Positions 1-8,483 of a DNA stretch of 8,483 bases are shown here, in pieces; the first letter of the stretch is position 1, and every line of letters starts with the position of its first letter. Below the pieces are notes generated by a model. It was not told the origin of the DNA, did no database searches, and saw nothing but the letters and a program-made list of their open reading frames with translations. The DNA is taken from NCBI GenBank assembly GCA_000002435.2, contig AACB03000021.1; one strand, written 5' to 3'. Made by a program: the position numbers and the translations under genes. This DNA is from Giardia intestinalis. Lineage: Eukaryota.

Positions 1-3000
1 GCAGCAAGAGGCGCCCGTCGAAGAACCTGAAGCGCCCGTTGAGGAGCCCGAGGAGCACGCCTTGCAGACCCCGCGGAGCCCGTCGAAGAACCTGAAGCGC
101 CCGTTGAGGAGCCCGAGGAGGCAGGCCTTGCAGAGCCCGCGGAGCCCGTCGAAGAACCCGAGCAGCAAGAGGCGCCCGTCGAAGAACCTGAAGCGCCCGT
201 TGAGGAGCCCGAGGAGGCACGCCTTGCAGACCCGCGGAGCCCGTCGAAGAACCTGAAGCGCCCGTTGAGGAGCCCGAGGAGGCACGCCTTGCAGAGCCCG
301 CGGAGCCCGTCGAAGAACCTGAAGCGCCCGTTGAGGAGCCCGAGGAGGCACGCCTTGCAGACCCGCGAGCCCGTCGAAGAAAACCTGAAGCGCCCGTTGA
401 GGAGCCGAGGAGGCACGCCTTGCAGAGCCCGCGGAGCCCCGTCGAAGAACCCGAGCAGCAAGAGGCGCCCGTCGAAGAACCTGAAGCGCCCGTTGAGGAG
501 CCCGAGGAGGCACGCCTTGCAGACCCGCGAGCCCGTCGAAGAACCTGAAGCGCCCGTTGAGGAGCCCGAGGAGGCACGCCTTGCAGAGCCCGCGGAGCCG
601 TCGAAGAACCTGAAGCGCCCGTGAGGAGCCCGAGGAGGCACGCCTTGCAGAGCCCGCGGAGCCCGTCGAAGAACCTGAACGCCCGTTGAGGAGCCCGAGG
701 AGGCACGCCTTGCAGAGCCCGCGGAGCCCGTCGAAGAACCCCGCAGCAAGAGGCCCGTCGAAGAACCTGAAGCGCCCGTTGAGGAGCCCGAGGAGGCACG
801 CCTTGCAGACCCGCGGAGCCCGTCGAAGAACCCGAGCAGCAAGAGGCCCGTCGAAGAACCTGAAGCGCCCGTTGAGGAGCCCGAGGAGGCACGCCTTGCA
901 GAGCCCGCGGAGCCCGTCGAAGAACCCGAGCAGCAAAGAGGCGCCCGTCGAAGAACCTGAAGCGCCCGTTGAGGAGCCCGAGGGAGGCACGCCTTGCAGA
1001 GCCCCGCGGAGCCCGTCGAAGAACCTGAAGCGCCCGTTGAGGAGCCCCGAGGAGGCACGCCTTGCAGGAGCCCGCCGGCGAGGCCCCGTCGAAGAACCTG
1101 AAGCGCCCCGTTGAGGAGCCCGAGGAGGCACGCCTTGCAGAGCCCGCGGAGCCCGTCGAAGAACCCGAGCAGCAAGAGGCGCCCGTCGAAGAACCTGAAG
1201 CGCCCGTTGAGGAGCCCGAGGAGGCACGCCTTGCAGAGCCCGCGGAGCCCGTCGAAGAACCCGAGCAGCAAGAGGCGCCCGTCGAAGAACCTGAAGCGCC
1301 CGTTGAGGAGCCCGAGGAGGCACGCCTTGCAGACCCCCGCGGAGCCCGTCGAAGAACCTGAAGCGCCCGTTGAGGAGCCCGAGGAGGCACGCCTTGCAGA
1401 GCCCGCGGAGCCCGTCGAAGAACCCGAGCAGCAAGAGGCGCCCGTCGAAGAACCTGAAGCGCCCGTTGAGGAGCCCGAGGAGGCACGCCTTGCAGACCCG
1501 CGGAGCCCGTCGAAGAACCCGAGCAGCAAGAGGCGCCCGTCGAAGAACCTGAAGCGCCGTTGAGGAGCCCGAGGAGGCACGCCTTGCAGACCCCGCGGAG
1601 CCCGTCGAAGAACCTGAAGCGCCCGTTGAGGAGCCCGAGGAGGCACGCCTTGCAGACCCGCGGAGCCCGTCGAAGAACCTGAAGCGCCCGTTGAGGAGCC
1701 CGAGGAGGCACGCCTTGCAGAGCCCGCGGAGCCCGTCGAAGAACCTGAAGCGCCCGTGAGGACCCGAGGAGCACGCCTTGCAGAGCCGCGGAGCCCGTCG
1801 AAGAACCTGAAGCGCCCGTTGAGGAGCCCGAGGAGGCACGCCTTGCAGAGCCCGCGGAGCCCGTCGAAGAACCCGAGCAGCAAGAGGCGCCCGTCGAAGA
1901 ACCTGAAGCGCCCGTTGAGGAGCCCGAGGAGGCACGCCTTGCAGAGCCCGCGGAGCCCGTCGAAGAACCCGAGCAGCAAGAGGCGCCCGTCGAAGAACCT
2001 GAAGCGCCCGTTGAGGAGCCCGAGGAGGCACGCCTTGCAGACCCCGCGGAGCCCGTCGAAGAACCCGAGCAGCAGAGGCGCCCGTCGAAGAACCTGAAGC
2101 GCCCGTTGAGGAGCCCGAGGAGGCACGCCTTGCAGACCCCGCGGAGCCCGTCGAAGAACCTGAAGCGCCCGTTGAGGAGCCCGAGGAGGCACGCCTTGCA
2201 GAGCCCGCGGAGCCCGTCGAAGAACCTGAAGCGCCCGTTGAGGAGCCCGAGGAGGCACGCCTTGCAGACCCGCGGAGCCCGTCGAAGAACCTGAAGCGCC
2301 CGTTGAGGAGCCCGAGGAGGCACGCCTTGCAGAGCCCGCGGAGCCCGTCGAAGAACCCGAGCAGCAAGAGGCGCCCGTCGAAGAACCTGAAGCGCCCGTT
2401 GAGGAGCCCGAGGAGGCACGCCTTGCAGACCCCGCGGAGCCCGTCGAAGAACCCGAGCAGCAAGAGGCGCCCGTCGAAGAACCTGAAGCGCCCGTTGAGG
2501 AGCCCGAGGAGGCACGCCTTGCAGACCCCGCGGAGCCCGTCGAAGAACCCGAGCAGCAAGAGGCGCCCGTCGAAGAACCTGAAGCGCCCGTTGAGGAGCC
2601 CGAGGAGGCACGCCTTGCAGACCCCGCGGAGCCCGTCGAAGAACCCGAGCAGCAAGAGGCGCCCGTCGAAGAACCTGAAGCGCCCGTTGAGGAGCCCGAG
2701 GAGGCACGCCTTGCAGACCCGCGGAGCCCGTCGAAGAACCCGAGCAGCAAGAGGCGCCCGTCGAAGAACCTGAAGCGCCCGTTGAGGAGCCCGAGGAGGC
2801 ACGCCTTGCAGACCCCGCGGAGCCCGTCGAAGAACCTGAAGCGCCCGTTGAGGAGCCCGAGGAGGCACGCCTTGCAGAGCCCGCGGAGCCCGTCGAAGAA
2901 CCCGAGCGCGAGGCGCCCGTCGAAGAACCTGAAGCGCCCGTTGAGGAGCCCGAGGAGGCACGCCTTGCAGAGCCCGCGGAGCCCGTCGGAAGAACCTGAA

Positions 3001-6000
3001 GCGCCCGTTGAGGAGCCCGAGGAGGCACGCCTTGCAGAGCCCGCGGAGCCCGTCGAAGAACCTGAAGCGCCCGTTGAGGAGCCCGAGGAGGCACGCCTGC
3101 AGACCCCGCGGAGCCCGTCGAAGAACCCCTCGGACCAGCGCCCGTTGAGGAGCCCGAGGAGGCACGCCTTGCAGACCCCGCGGAGCCCGTCGAAGAACCC
3201 GAGCAGCAAGAGGCGCCCGTCGAAGAACCTGAGCGCCCGTTGAGGAGCCCGAGGAGGCACGCCTTGCAGACCCCGCGGAGCCCGTCGAAGAACCCGAGCA
3301 GCAAGAGGCGCCCGTCGAAGAACCTGAAGCGCCCGTTGAGGAGCCCGAGGAGGCACGCCTTGCAGACCCGCGGAGCCGTCGAAGACCCGAGCAGCAAGAG
3401 GCGCCGTCGAAGAACCTGAAGCGCCCGTTGAGGAGCCCGAGGAGGCACGCCTTGCAGACCCCGCGGAGCCCGTCGAAGAACCCGAGCAGCAGAGGCGCCC
3501 GTCGAGAACCTGAAGCGCCCGTTGAGGAGCCCGAGGAGGCACGCCTTGCAGACCCGCGGAGCCCGTCGAGAACCCGAGCAGCAAGAGGCGCCCGTCGAAG
3601 AACCTGAAGCGCCCGTTGAGGAGCCCGAGGAGGCACGCCTTGCAGACCCCGCGGAGCCCGTCGAAGAACCCGAGCAGCAAGAGGCGCCCGTCGAAGAACC
3701 TGAAGCGCCCGTTGAGGAGCCCGAGGAGGCACGCCTTGCAGACCCCGCGGAGCCCGTCGAAGAACCCGAGCAGCAAGAGGCGCCCGTCGAAGAACCTGAG
3801 CGCCCGTTGAGGAGCCCGAGGAGGCACGCCTTGCAGACCCCGCGGAGCCCGTCGAAGAACCCGAGCAGCAAGAGGCGCCCGTCGAAGAACCTGAAGCGCC
3901 CGTTGAGGAGCCCGAGGAGGCACGCCTTGCAGACCCGCGGAGCCCGTCGAAGAACCTGAAGCGCCCGTTGAGGAGCCCCGAGGAGGCACGCCTTGCAGAG
4001 CCCGCGGAGCCCGTCGAAGAACCCGAGCAGCAAGAGGCGCCCGTCGAAGAACCTGAAGCGCCCGTTGAGGAGCCCGAGGAGCACGCCTTGCAGACCCCGC
4101 CGGGAGCGCCGTCGAAGAACCTGAAGCGCCCGTTGAGGAGCCCGAGGAGGCACGCCTTGCAGACCCGCGGAGCCCGTCGAAGAACCTGAAGCGCCCGTTG
4201 AGGAGCCCGAGGAGGCACGCCTTGCAGACCCCGCGGAGCCCGTCGAAGAACCTGAAGCGCCCGTTGAGGAGCCCGAGGAGCACGCCTTGCAGAGCCCGCG
4301 GAGCCGTCGAAGAACCTGAGCGCCCGTTGAGGAGCCCGAGGAGGCACGCCTTGCAGAGCCCGCGGAGCCGTCGAAGAACCCGAGCAGCAAGAGGCGCCGT
4401 CGAAGAACCTGAAGCGCCCGTTGAGGAGCCCGAGGAGGCACGCCTTGCAGACCCCGCGGAGCCCGTCGAAGAACCTGAAGCGCCCGTTGAGGAGCCCGAG
4501 GAGGCACGCCTTGCAGACCCGCGGAGCCCGTCGAAGAACCTGAAGCGCCCGTTGAGGAGCCCGAGGAGGCACGCCTTGCAGACCCCGCGGAGCCCGTCGA
4601 AGAACCTGAAGCGCCCGTTGAGGAGCCCGAGGAGGCACGCCTTGCAGAGCCCGCGGAGCCCGTCGAAGAACCCGAGCAGCAAGAGGCGCCCGTCGAAGAA
4701 CCTGAAGCGCCCGTTGAGGAGCCCGAGGAGGGCACGCCTTGCAGACCCGCGGAGGCCCCGTCGAAGAACCTGAAGCGCCCGTTGAGGAGCCCGAGGAGGC
4801 ACGCCTTGCAGAGCCCGGCGGAGCCCGTCGAAGAACCTGAGCGCCCGTTGAGGAGCCCGAGGAGGCACGCCTTGCAGACCCCGCGGAGCCCGTCGAAGAA
4901 CCTGAAGCGCCCGTTGAGGAGCCGAGGAGGCACGCCTTGCAGAGCCCGCGGAGCCCGTCGAAGAACCTGAAGCGCCCGTTGAGGAGCCCGAGGAGGCACG
5001 CCTTGCAGAGCCCGCGGAGCCCGTCGAAGAACCCGAGCAGCAAGAGGCGCCCGTCGAAGAACCTGAAGCGCCCGTTGAGGAGCCCGAGGAGGCACGCCTT
5101 GCAGACCCCGCGGAGCCCGTCGAAGAACCGAGCAGCAAGAGGCGCCCGTCGAAGAACCTGAAGCGCCCGTTGAGGAGCCCGAAGGAGGCACGCCTTGCAG
5201 ACCCCGCGGAGCCCGTCGAAGAACCTGAAGCGCCCGTTGAGGAGCCCGAGGAGGCACGCCTTGCAGAGCCCGCGGAGCCCGTCGAAGAACCCGAGCAGCA
5301 AGAGGCGCCCGTCGAAGAACCTGAAGCGCCCGTTGAGGAGCCCGAGGAGGCACGCCTTGCAGAGCCCGCGGAGCCCGTCGAAGAACCCGAGCAGCAAGAG
5401 GCGCCCGTCGAAGAACCTGAAGCGCCCGTTGAGGAGCCCGAGGAGGCACGCCTTGCAGACCCCGCGGAGCCCGTCGAAGAACCTGAAGCGCCCGTTGAGG
5501 AGCCCGAGGAGGCACGCCTTGCAGACCCGCGGAGCCCGTCGAAGAACCTGAAGCGCCCGTTGAGGAGCCCGAGGAGGCACGCCTTGCAGACCCGCGGAGC
5601 CCGTCGAAGAACCCGAGCAGCAAGAGGCGCCCGTCGAAGAACCTGAAGCGCCCGTTGAGGAGCCCGAGGAGGCACGCCTTGCAGACCCCGCGGAGCCCGT
5701 CGAAGAACCTGAAGCGCCCGTTGAGGAGCCCGAGGAGGCACGCCTTGCAGAGCCCGCGGAGCCCGTCGAAGAACCTGAAGCGCCCGTTGAGGAGCCCGAG
5801 GAGGCACGCCTTGCAGAGCCCGCGGAGCCCGTCGAAGAACCTGAAGCGCCCGTTGAGGAGCCCGAGGAGGCACGCCTTGCAGAGCCCGCGGAGCCCGTCG
5901 AAGAACCTGAAGCGCCCGTTGAGGAGCCCGAGGAGGCACGCCTTGCAGAGCCCGTCGAAGAACCTGAAGCGCCCGTTGAGGAGCCCGAGGAGGCACGCCT

Positions 6001-8483
6001 TGCAGAGCCCGCGGAGCCCGTCGAAGAACCTGAAGCGCCCGTTGAGGAGCCCGAGAGGCACGCCTTGCAGAGCCCGTCGAAGAACCTGAAGCGCCCGTTG
6101 AGGAGCCCGAGGAGGCACGCCTTGCAGAGCCCGCGGAGCCCGTCGAAGAACCTGAAGCGCCCGTTGAGGAGCCCGAGGAGGCACGCCTTGCAGAGCCCGT
6201 CGAAGAACCTGAAGCGCCCGTTGAGGAGCCCGAGGAGGCACGCCTTGCAGACCCGCGGAGCCCGTCGAAGAACCTGAAGCGCCCGTTGAGGAGCCCGAGG
6301 AGGCACGCCTTGCAGAGCCCGTCGAAGAACCTGAAGCGCCCGTTGAGGAGCCCGAGGAGGCACGCCTTGCAGAGCCCGTCGAAGAACCTGAAGCGCCCGT
6401 TGAGGAGCCCGAGGAGGCACGCCTTGCAGAGCCCGCGGAGCCCGTCGAAGAACCTGAAGCGCCCGTTGAGGAGCCCGAGGAGGCACGCCTTGCAGAGCCC
6501 GTCGAAGAACCTGAAGCGCCCGTTGAGGAGCCCGAGGAGGCACGCCTTGCAGAGCCCGCGGAGCCCGTCGAAGAACCTGAAGCGCCCGTTGAGGAGCCCG
6601 AGGAGGCACGCCTTGCAGAGCCCGTCGAAGAACCTGAAGCGCCCGTTGAGGAGCCCGAGGAGGCACGCCTTGCAGAGCCCGCGGAGCCCGTCGAAGAACC
6701 TGAAGCGCCCGTTGAGGAGCCCGAGGAGGCACGCCTTGCAGAGCCCGCGGAGCCCGTCGAAGAACCTGAAGCGCCCGTTGAGGAGCCCGAGGAGGCACGC
6801 CTTGCAGACCCCGCGGAGCCCGTCGAAGAACCCGAGCAGCAAGAGGCGCCCGTCGAAGAACCTGAAGCGCCCGTTGAGGAGCCCGAGGAGGCACGCCTTG
6901 CAGACCCGCGGAGCCCGTCGAAGAACCTGAAGCGCCCGTTGAGGAGCCCGAGGAGGCACGCCTTGCAGAGCCCGCGGAGCCCGTCGAAGAACCTGAAGCG
7001 CCCGTTGAGGAGCCCGAGGAGGCACGCCTTGCAGAGCCCGCGGAGCCCGTCGAAGAACCTGAAGCGCCCGTTGAGGAGCCCGAGGAGGCACGCCTTGCAG
7101 ACCCGCGGAGCCCGTCGAAGAACCCGAGCAGCAAGAGCGCCCGTCGAAGAACCTGAAGCGCCCGTTGAGGAGCCCGAGGAGGCACGCCTTGCAGACCCCG
7201 CGGAGCCCGTCGAAGAACCTGAAGCGCCCGTTGAGGAGCCCGAGGAGGCACGCCTTGCAGAGCCCGCGGAGCCCGTCGAAGAACCCGAGCGCAAGAGGCG
7301 CCCGTCGAAGAACCTGAAGCGCCCGTTGAGGAGCCCGAGGAGGCACGCCTTGCAGAGCCCGCGGAGCCCGTCGAAGAACCTGAAGCGCCCGTTGAGGAGC
7401 CCGAGGAGGCACGCCTTGCAGACCCCGCGGAGCCCGTCGAAGAACCCGAGCAGCAAGAGGCGCCCGTCGAAGAACCTGAAGCGCCCGTTGAGGAGCCCGA
7501 GGAGGCACGCCTTGCAGAGCCCGCGGAGCCCGTCGAAGAACCCGAGCAGCAAGAGGCGCCCGTCGAAGACCTGAAGCGCCCGTTGAGGAGCCCGAGGAGG
7601 CACGCCTTGCAGAGCCCGCGGAGCCCGTCGAAGAACCTGAAGCGCCCGTTGAGGAGCCCGAGGAGGCACGCCTTGCAGACCCCGCGGAGCCCGTCGAAGA
7701 ACCCGAGCAGCAAGAGGCGCCCGTCGAAGAACCTGAAGCGCCCGTTGAGGAGCCCGAGGAGGCACGCCTTGCAGACCCGCGGAGCCCGTCGAAGAACCCG
7801 AGCAGCAAGAGGGCCCGTCGAAGAACCTGAAGCGCCCGTTGAGGAGCCCGAGGAGGCACGCCTTGCAGACCCGCGGAGCCCGTCGAAGAACCTGAAGCGC
7901 CCGTTGAGGAGCCCGAGGAGGCACGCCTTGCAGAGCCCGCGGAGCCCGTCGAAGAACCCGAGCAGCAAGAGGCGCCCGTCGAAGAACCTGAAGCGCCCGT
8001 TGAGGAGCCCGAGGAGGCACGCCTTGCAGACCCCGCGGAGCCCGTCGAAGAACCTGAAGCGCCCGTTGAGGAGCCCGAGGAGGCACGCCTTGCAGAGCCC
8101 GCGGAGCCCGTCGAAGAACCTGAAGCGCCCGTTGAGGAGCCCGAGGAGGCACGCCTTGCAGAGCCCGCGGAGCCCGTCGAAGAACTGAACGCCCGTTGAG
8201 GAGCCCGAGGAGGCAGCCTTGCAGAGCCGCGGAGCCCGTCGAAGAACCTGAAGCGCCCGTTGAGGAGCCCGAGGAGGCACGCCTTGCAGACCCGCGGAGC
8301 CCGTCGAAGAACCTGAAGCGCCCGTTGAGGAGCCCGAGGAGGCACGCCTTGCAGACCCCGCGGAGCGTCGAAGAACCTGAAGCGCCCGTTGAGGAGCCCG
8401 AGAGGCACGCCTTGCAGACCCGCGGAGCCCGTCGAAGAACCTGAAGCGCCCGTTGAGGAGCCCGAGGAGGCACGCCTTGCAGA
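1..8483 (+). CDS. Internal fragment (no start, no stop) of a putative giant acidic Pro/Glu-rich tandem-repeat protein with repeat PVEEPEAPVEEPEEARLA[E/D]PAE, with or without the PVEEPEQQEA pre-insert. As given, the frame is interrupted by many 1-nt indels, so this may be a pseudogene or an error-containing read.
   Basis: The core consists of three 18-nt sub-repeats (cccgtcgaagaacccgag / cccgtcgaagaacctgaa / cccgttgaggagcccgag). These differ only at positions 6, 9, 12, 15 and 18, which are the third codon positions of this frame, so all three encode PVEEPE. Almost all unit-length variants are multiples of 3 (57, 66, 96, plus 27-nt inserts and +3/+6 core variants). The longest clean stretch in this frame is about 6261-6913 (about 217 codons). 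A minus-strand Ser/Gly-rich frame (SAGSARRASSGSSTGASGSSTG) shares the same wobble positions and cannot be excluded. Confidence 0.4.
240..305. repeat. Reference canonical 66-nt unit (core 240-293, linker gagcccgcggag 294-305)
   Basis: Read directly from the sequence. The adjacent unit 175-239 is the 65-nt variant with linker gacccgcggag at 229-239. Confidence 0.9.
1067..1090. other. Divergent linker island 'ggagcccgccggcgaggccccgtc' replacing the canonical 'gagcccgcggagcccgtc'
   Basis: Direct comparison with the canonical unit. This is the local maximum of irregularity in the indel-rich 5' part of the window. Confidence 0.6.
2344..2822. repeat. Run of five consecutive insert-bearing units (96, 96, 96, 95, 96 nt), each being the 30-nt pre-insert plus core plus D-type linker
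   Basis: Units fall at 2344-2439, 2440-2535, 2536-2631, 2632-2726 (CCC linker at 2716-2726) and 2727-2822. Each begins with cccgtcgaagaacccgagcagcaagaggcg. Confidence 0.85.
3128..3140. other. Unique 13-nt segment 'cctcggaccagcg' replacing the canonical 7-nt 'tgaagcg' inside a core (net +6 nt, in-frame)
   Basis: This is the only place in the window where the core sequence is substituted rather than changed by a 1-nt indel. In the PVEEPE frame it reads EEPLGPAPVEE instead of EEPEAPVEE. Confidence 0.6.
5696..6818. repeat. Insert-free sub-domain of 18 units lacking the 30-nt pre-insert. It contains all nine 57-nt units, alternating with 66-nt units as a 123-nt higher-order repeat (5894-6674).
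   Basis: The 'gag' short linkers lie at 5948-5950, 6070-6072, 6193-6195, 6315-6317, 6372-6374, 6495-6497 and 6618-6620. Full linkers interleave at 6005-6016, 6127-6138, 6429-6440, 6552-6563 and 6675-6686. No 'cagcaagagg' pre-insert occurs between 5624 and 6818. Confidence 0.85.

Follow-up and report, generated by a model that had tools for sequence, protein, structure and literature searches.

A uniform tandem array in Giardia intestinalis that probably encodes part of a giant acidic, proline-rich repeat protein

Comparison with known acidic repeats

Acidic, Pro-rich, disordered tandem repeats are already known as a general class, and the sequence described in this study most likely belongs to it. 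It is an 8,483-nt stretch of Giardia intestinalis contig AACB03000021.1 (assembly GCA_000002435.2), which is referred to here in its whole length as the window, and it consists of a single tandem array whose units, read on the + strand, are built on the heptad (E/A)PVEEPE. On balance, the window is probably an internal piece of a protein-coding repeat on the + strand that encodes at least 2,800 amino acids (aa) of acidic, proline-rich sequence predicted to be disordered. Several described systems provide a basis for comparison. The PEVK region of titin, with its PPAK motifs and poly-E segments, is composed of tandem modules of approximately 20 to 30 residues rich in Pro, Glu, and Val, which are disordered and extensible and serve as an entropic spring or spacer. 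The EP/GPEET procyclins of trypanosomes, the central acidic repeat of the magnetosome protein MamJ, and the coccolithophore protein GPA are tandem acidic repeats dominated by Glu, Pro, and Ala, whose extended polyanionic structures function in surface coats or in cation or mineral binding. At the DNA level, coding minisatellites or variable number tandem repeats, e.g., the mucin repeats, have units of some tens of bases whose lengths are multiples of three (3n), become uniform through unequal crossing-over, extend over kilobases with higher-order blocks, and are hard to assemble and subject to long-read errors.

The likeness to the titin PEVK region is one of composition only, in that both are tandem modules rich in Pro, Glu, and Val. 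The PEVK region is rich in Lys and nearly charge-balanced, whereas the window repeat contains no Lys and has a net charge of about -8 per 22 residues (9 Glu/Asp versus 1 Arg); in addition, the titin modules have diverged, whereas the copies in the window are near-identical in DNA. The PPAK/PEVK-type profile of Pfam did not match the window repeat. A resemblance to PEVK had been proposed in an initial reading of the DNA letters (the sequence-only reading); it holds for the composition and does not extend to a Pfam match or to the presence of lysine. The procyclins, MamJ, and GPA are leads only, since their repeat units and lengths differ from those of the window and none of them turned up in the sequence searches. 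The mucin repeats are rich in Ser, Thr, and Pro and would fit only the antisense frame of the window, which is disfavored (see below). From these comparisons, the array appears to be akin to acidic Pro-rich disordered repeats and not a demonstrable member of those families.

Tracts of xPVEEPE heptads are also found next to unique domains in real proteins, namely, P0001, P0002, P0005, P0008, and P0033. The heptad linkers of bacterial surface-type proteins (P0001, P0002, and P0008; loci L001-L003, which originate from metagenome-assembled genomes [MAGs] of Oscillospiraceae, Intestinimonas, and Agathobaculum) share with the window the tandem (E/A)PVEEPE and an acidic, Pro-rich character. In P0001 and P0002, the heptad tract is flanked by an N-terminal secreted domain on one side and by a C-terminal membrane helix on the other, i.e., it occupies the position of a spacer. 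These proteins carry approximately 10 to 15 plain heptads, whereas the window has a composite 22- or 32-residue unit with EARLA(E/D)PAE and QQEA; furthermore, they carry unique domains, whereas the window comprises more than 250 heptads in 111 units and contains repeat only. The likeness is weak and compositional (E values of 2.7e-5 to 1.7e-7) and more suggestive of convergence than of homology. P0001 and P0002 themselves have a common layout, consisting of a signal peptide, a domain of approximately 250-280 aa without a Pfam match, (EAPVEEP)n, a C-terminal membrane helix, and a basic end (KRR in P0001 and RKRK in P0002), and could belong to a so far undescribed family of surface proteins in gut Clostridia.

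Array architecture and silent divergence of the sub-repeats

A single, very uniform head-to-tail tandem repeat fills all 8,483 nt of the window, the composition of which is 69% GC, with A far commoner than T and the TA dinucleotide absent. Tandem Repeats Finder (TRF) gave periods of 21, 66, 96, 123, and 162 nt, and a dynamic-programming parse into five modules (M1 to M5) resolved 111 units, the number at which the sequence-only reading had arrived approximately. The units fall into three classes of 66 nt (61 units, M1-M4), 96 nt (42 units, M1-M5), and 57 nt (8 units, M1-M3); the eighth 57-nt unit is a unit truncated by the window end, and the genuine 57-nt units therefore number seven. In the + frame, the unit reads (E/A)PVEEPE-APVEEPE-EARLA(E/D)-[PAE]-[PVEEPEQQEA], in which the bracketed parts are optional and the three classes correspond to 19, 22, and 32 residues. 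There are two heptads in each 57- or 66-nt unit and three in each 96-nt unit. The array, its modules as they lie in one error-free unit, and two further reference units are as follows.

1..8483, + strand: tandem array of 111 units (TRF and dynamic-programming parse)
1182..1277, + strand: reference error-free 96-nt unit, PVEEPEA PVEEPEE ARLAE PAE PVEEPEQQEA, identical to the class consensus
1182..1202, + strand: module M1, CCCGTCGAAGAACCTGAAGCG, PVEEPE-A, the 'GAA/CCT/GTC' codon version of the heptad (parse and translation)
1203..1223, + strand: module M2, CCCGTTGAGGAGCCCGAGGAG, PVEEPE-E, the same peptide as M1 with 5 third-codon differences (M1/M2 comparison)
1224..1238, + strand: module M3, GCACGCCTTGCAGA[G/C], ARLA-E/D; the array's one truly polymorphic site lies at its last base, which is also a deletion hot spot
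1239..1247, + strand: optional module M4, CCCGCGGAG, PAE, absent from the 57-nt units and carrying a CCGCGG palindrome
1248..1277, + strand: optional module M5, CCCGTCGAAGAACCCGAGCAGCAAGAGGCG, PVEEPE-QQEA, found in the 96-nt units only, with an 18-mer that is an M1/M2 hybrid
240..305, + strand: reference error-free 66-nt unit, E form (class-consensus match)
2081..2146, + strand: reference error-free 66-nt unit, D form, with C at 2137 (class-consensus match)

The PVEEPE 18-mers occur in two versions, CCCGTCGAAGAACCTGAA and CCCGTTGAGGAGCCCGAG, which differ at five positions only (t/c, a/g, a/g, t/c, and a/g at positions 6, 9, 12, 15, and 18). All five are third codon positions, and the corresponding codon swaps (GTC/GTT, GAA/GAG twice, CCT/CCC, and GAA/GAG) are silent. 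When M1 and M2 are compared together with the preceding Ala codon, five of the seven third positions are changed and none of the 14 first and second positions (Fisher p = 0.001); in heptad numbering, the differences fall at 9, 12, 15, 18, and 21 only. The 18-mer of M5, CCCGTCGAAGAACCCGAG, joins the first 12 bases of one version to the last 6 of the other. Such a silent-only pattern is unlikely to have arisen by chance, also when the three frames from which one could choose are taken into account. The earlier observation that the sub-repeats differ at every third base, silently as PVEEPE, was thus confirmed at all five sites. The 54-nt core of three 18-mers described along with it is inaccurate, because the 18-mers are not contiguous but follow one another at 21-nt spacing with one codon between them, and the third 18-mer is present in the 96-nt units only.

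Three divides the sub-period (21 nt) as well as the length of every unit class (57, 66, and 96 nt). A non-coding satellite would be indifferent to codon phase; here, both the sub-repeat divergence and the structural lengths keep a strict 3-nt phase. The silent-site divergence and the 3n architecture are therefore the footprint of selection on a protein, and the coding origin of the array is well supported. The sequence-only reading had reached the same view partly from a length polymorphism that it described as almost always 3n. This argument falls, as 45 of the 109 anchor-to-anchor spacings are non-3n and the description fits only the structural classes, whereas the silent divergence, the 3n sub-period and classes, and the open frame obtained after indel correction uphold the coding origin. 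The diversity per codon position across units, which the same reading had proposed to compute, proved uninformative: 31 of 33 substitutions fall at position 3, but at one single site, and since the units are essentially identical, diversity per unit says nothing on purifying selection. The length of open reading frames (ORFs) was likewise rejected as coding evidence, because the base composition opens five of the six consensus frames. In a homogenized array, evidence for coding is to be sought in the old sub-repeat divergence and the 3n architecture, not in the diversity between units or in ORF length.

The edges of the window fall inside units, in module M5 at the start and in module M3 at the end, and the array therefore extends beyond the window. 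Within it, the unit classes are locally ordered, as seen in two blocks.

5894..6620, + strand: block to which the genuine 57-nt units, seven in number, are confined, for the most part in alternation with 66-nt units, giving a local higher-order repeat of 123 nt (unit order and TRF period 123)
3114..3877, + strand: eight 96-nt units in succession (unit order)

The alternating block at 5894-6620 indicates local expansion by unequal crossing-over. The CCGCGG palindrome, a SacII-type site, lies at the M3/M4 junction once per 66- or 96-nt unit, with 98 copies in the window, and host methylation of this site, if present, could contribute to systematic base-calling errors nearby.

Single-base indels and the state of the reading frame

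In the record, each + frame contains 62-80 stops, and the translation slides repeatedly from PVEEPE to a basic frame (RSPSKNLKRPLRSPRRHALQ) and on to a frame containing TGA. The alignment of each unit to its class consensus gave 75 single-base deletions, 31 insertions, and 33 substitutions. Of the substitutions, 31 represent a single recurring change, G to C at the final base of M3, by which E becomes D in 31 units; only 2 other substitutions are present in 8.4 kb. Outside the hot spot, 41 of 51 deletions lie in homopolymer runs, versus 50% expected (p = 1.5e-5), and 28 of the 31 insertions duplicate a neighboring base. The indels are mostly one-off and uncompensated, with a net shift of -44; their density, approximately 1.25% overall, is higher over the initial 1.5 kb and the final 500 nt, and lesser peaks lie at 3,000-4,500. 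Exact copies of the class consensus make up 53 of the 111 units, and the apparent units of 62, 69, 93, 99, and 102 nt are the sums of separate 1-nt indels and do not reflect in-frame changes. Because of their homopolymer location and the ratio of indels to substitutions, we read the 106 indels as long-read sequencing errors and not as decay. This error profile points to an essentially perfect underlying array, recorded from long reads that were unpolished or of low coverage. With the indels corrected, the + frame runs open through 2,838 codons, which is in line with the figure of at least 2,800 aa that the sequence-only reading had given for an intact frame; in the record itself, that frame is broken approximately 106 times, breaks that the sequence-only reading had overlooked, and reaches 215 codons at most. 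The most intact region is found in the second half of the window.

6255..6899, + strand: longest uninterrupted stretch of the PVEEPE frame, 215 codons
6261..6848, + strand: longest run of error-free units, nine units (inside 6255..6899)

One recurrent indel requires separate consideration. GACCCCG is read as GACCCG in 24 of 55 D-type units (approximately 44%), clean regions included, compared with approximately 4% for the CCC run of the E-type units. The loss, from GACCCCGCGG to GACCCGCGG, occurs exactly at the G/C polymorphic site, e.g., at 6241-6254, 6901-6914, and 7091-7104. From the succession of E and D units along the array, the GACCCG units sit at places where a D unit (GACCCCG) would be expected, and for this reason GACCCG is best regarded as a systematic under-call of the four-C run; alternatively, it could be a consensus artefact at a mixed site. 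Programmed frameshifting at GACCCG, which would give a protein of acidic and basic blocks, was rejected, because a second -1 shift enters the frame with two TGA codons per unit. A few messy patches with clustered insertions or substitutions, at 1061-1095, 3121-3140, and 4091-4117 (e.g., gcaggagcccgccggcgaggcccc and gaacccctcggaccagcg), appear to be stretches of poor local consensus and not separate variants of the repeat.

The same indels can be taken as real, in which case the array would be a non-coding satellite or a dead gene remnant, derived from coding sequence and giving no protein now. The stops and the uncompensated frame shifts described above are what such a remnant would display, the GACCCG variant occurs 24 times with the cleanest region included, and no homologous protein was found in the databases searched. 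Decay, however, yields more substitutions than indels, whereas the ratio here is 2 to 106, and the concentration of mostly unit-unique indels in homopolymer runs is a technical pattern. Homogenization so thorough for substitutions would also have spread or purged the indels, and the silent-site pattern and the 3n architecture show past selection on a protein. We therefore consider a dead remnant unlikely.

Strand and frame

The sub-repeats encode identical peptides in just two frames, namely, the + frame PVEEPE and the minus frame that shares its wobble positions. The latter reads ...SGSSTGASGSSTGSAGSARRAS..., and all five sub-repeat differences are silent there as well. The sequence-only reading had pointed to this ambiguity and had left the strand undecided on the wobble sites; both statements agree with our results on the consensus frames. 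The basic + frame was rejected as the coding frame although it is open, since the M1/M2 differences are non-synonymous in it and the sub-repeats vanish. Arguments for the strand from transitions and transversions or from the E/D site were not decisive.

The base usage of the + frame, with a first codon position that is 100% G/C and mostly G, a G+C content of 45% at the second position, and one of 64% at the third, is a typical coding asymmetry. The + strand is favored because of this usual asymmetry and because PVEEPE heptads are found in real proteins; the coding strand is probably +, although the heptad argument is one of analogy.

If the minus strand were the coding one, the product would be a mucin-like, mildly basic repeat rich in Ser, Gly, Thr, and Ala (...SGSSTG-A-SGSSTG-SAGSARRAS..., with ASCCS in the 96-nt units). 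In addition to the silence of the five sub-repeat differences, this frame renders the G/C polymorphism silent (GGC/GGG, both Gly), whereas the same change replaces E with D on the + strand, and all three minus-strand frames run through the 8,483 nt without a stop, indels included, giving open frames of 2,827 codons. However, the minus strand is free of stops simply because the T-poor + strand contains no TCA, TTA, or CTA, which applies equally to all three minus frames. The first codon position of the minus frame is 41% T, in contrast to the usual G-rich first position of the + frame. The protein search with the minus frame gave nothing at E <= 0.001, whereas the + frame matches real heptad proteins, and in locus L002, which contains a real gene, the ASGSSTG frame is a spurious antisense ORF of a PVEEPE-type tract. 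Taken together, these features make a minus-strand coding repeat, whose peptides would include ASSGSSTGASGSSTGSAGSAR, quite unlikely.

The antisense ORF of L002 (448-999, +; MAG of Candidatus Intestinimonas stercoravium) reads ...STGASGSSTGASGSSTG... and runs opposite a genuine (PVEEPEA)n tract, an example of how the Ser/Gly/Thr frame on the other strand of PVEEPE repeats is as a rule open and liable to be mis-called. A gene caller applied to the present window would probably report a spurious giant antisense ORF.

Searches for relatives

At the DNA level, blastn gave no match in plasmids and phages. The composite unit, back-translated as PVEEPEEARLA[E/D] or EEARLA[E/D]PAEPVEEP, was absent from IMG/VR viral contigs, from 185,579 species-representative genomes, and from JGI metagenomes. 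Since a 35-nt pattern from within the unit should be recovered even where short reads collapse the array, its absence from the representative prokaryotic genomes may, speculatively, point to an organism not sampled there, perhaps a eukaryote. The plain double-heptad pattern was found in three gut Clostridia MAGs only and in no viral contig. A looser pattern, ARLA[E/D]PAEPVE[E/D], had a single metagenome match (L004, 47-81, minus strand, contig Ga0190265_10028461), which was set aside as a chance match unrelated to the array; it lies inside or antisense to a 559-aa ORF with apparent TPR-like C-terminal repeats.

Protein searches were similarly unproductive. Word-index searches with three frames returned nothing close, with weak compositional matches for the + frame only and none for the minus frame or the second + frame. 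An exhaustive phmmer search of 1.84 billion representatives gave 32 matches, the best with E = 7.3e-9 and none reaching 1e-10, and all of them are low-complexity heptad tracts in otherwise unrelated proteins that align through the heptads only. Ten candidate products of the window (three full-length minus frames and seven + ORFs) were absent from a collection of 15 billion proteins, and the array products had no match in Pfam (E <= 1), NCBIfam, PHROGs, or the PDB. A 'Mucin-like' match of the second + frame was dismissed as sub-threshold (E = 0.045; 14.5 bits versus a cutoff of 28.7). The peptide strings of the repeat do not occur in the searchable papers. Profile and protein searches of both frames had been suggested in the sequence-only reading; they gave heptad-tract matches for the + frame and none for the minus frame.

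It is very unlikely that, around a real unit, the length, order, and extreme uniformity of the array arose for the most part as artefacts in the assembly or consensus of a repeat-only long-read contig with poor coverage, which would make the figure of at least 2,800 aa unreliable. The window is indeed repeat-only with both ends cut within a unit, its indel rate is typical of an unpolished or low-coverage consensus, and none of the collections searched yielded an independent copy of the locus. However, the unit types are unscrambled (seven 57-nt units together, alternating with 66-nt units, and eight 96-nt units in a run) and the E/D states are locally patterned, as would be seen in a truly resolved array, and even one long read, or a consensus built from only a few, would place the length in the correct order of magnitude.

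Predicted properties of the product

The indel-corrected protein of the + frame contains 40.8% Glu, 22.3% Pro, and 16.8% Ala and no Lys, with an isoelectric point (pI) of 4.05 and a grand average of hydropathy of -1.24. Proline occurs every 3-4 residues, aromatic residues are absent, and the large hydrophobic residues of a unit are limited to one Leu and two Val. An AlphaFold2 run on the repeat peptide from the single sequence gave a mean pLDDT (predicted local distance difference test score) of 52.4, a pTM (predicted template modeling score) of 0.11, and no secondary structure, which lends weak support to the predicted disorder of the repeat protein. The description of the repeat as approximately 40% Glu, Pro-rich, of very low pI, and predicted to be disordered is borne out by these values.

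A function at the RNA level is unlikely. The repeat sequence has no match in Rfam, no inverted repeats were found in it, and the RNA folding z-score of +1.92 indicates folds weaker than those of shuffled sequences. The layout is not CRISPR-like, as the units follow one another head to tail without spacers.

Proposed origin and function

Several observations weigh against the interpretation of the window as an internal piece of a + strand coding repeat. The + frame is not intact in the record itself, and the claim that the indels are errors rests on the indel profile, not on reads. The rate of GACCCG is high for a four-base run, even in the cleanest part, and this form could be a real variant. 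With five of six consensus frames open, the openness of a frame is of little weight, and the antisense frame fits the wobble data equally well while making the E/D site silent. The window, which is repeat from base 1 to base 8483, has no start, stop, signal peptide, anchor, or unique domain. By sequence comparison, no homologue was detected among approximately 15 billion proteins in any frame, and no matching contig was detected in the genome, metagenome, viral, plasmid, and phage collections. Finally, the disorder prediction came from a run without an alignment.

The interpretation as a + strand coding repeat would account for the array in two phases. In the first, an old duplication of the APVEEPE heptad would have diverged at silent sites only, under selection on the peptide. 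In the later phase, the composite unit would have been amplified very recently, or homogenized by unequal crossing-over, to give 111 near-identical copies in local higher-order blocks; growth by unequal crossing-over is proposed because of the alternation of 57- and 66-nt units, the run of eight 96-nt units, and the near-zero substitution divergence. The approximately 106 frame-breaking single-base indels would be long-read sequencing or consensus errors and have no biological meaning. In the product, electrostatic repulsion and the stiffness of proline would be expected to give an extended, highly hydrated polyanionic chain. By analogy with the shorter xPVEEPE tracts, such a chain would most likely serve as an extended polyanionic spacer or stalk; a cation-binding matrix is an alternative role that the xPVEEPE analogues do not support.

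More tentatively, the array may form the central part of a genuine, expressed protein, an orphan giant of more than 2,800 residues, with approximately 41% Glu and no Lys, that would represent a new family of very large acidic proteins serving as spacers or as cation-binding matrices. Its more than 100 copies would be identical in DNA through recent amplification, and it has no match in the genome, metagenome, and protein collections searched. If this is true, few of the Glu/Pro polyanionic repeat regions known would be as long or as pure, and approximately 15 billion predicted proteins yielded no relative of it; the region might then function as an extended surface stalk, as an entropic spring, or as a cation-binding matrix. 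Short-read assemblies and gene calls on noisy long-read contigs systematically miss such proteins, and the case illustrates how giant low-complexity genes can go uncatalogued.

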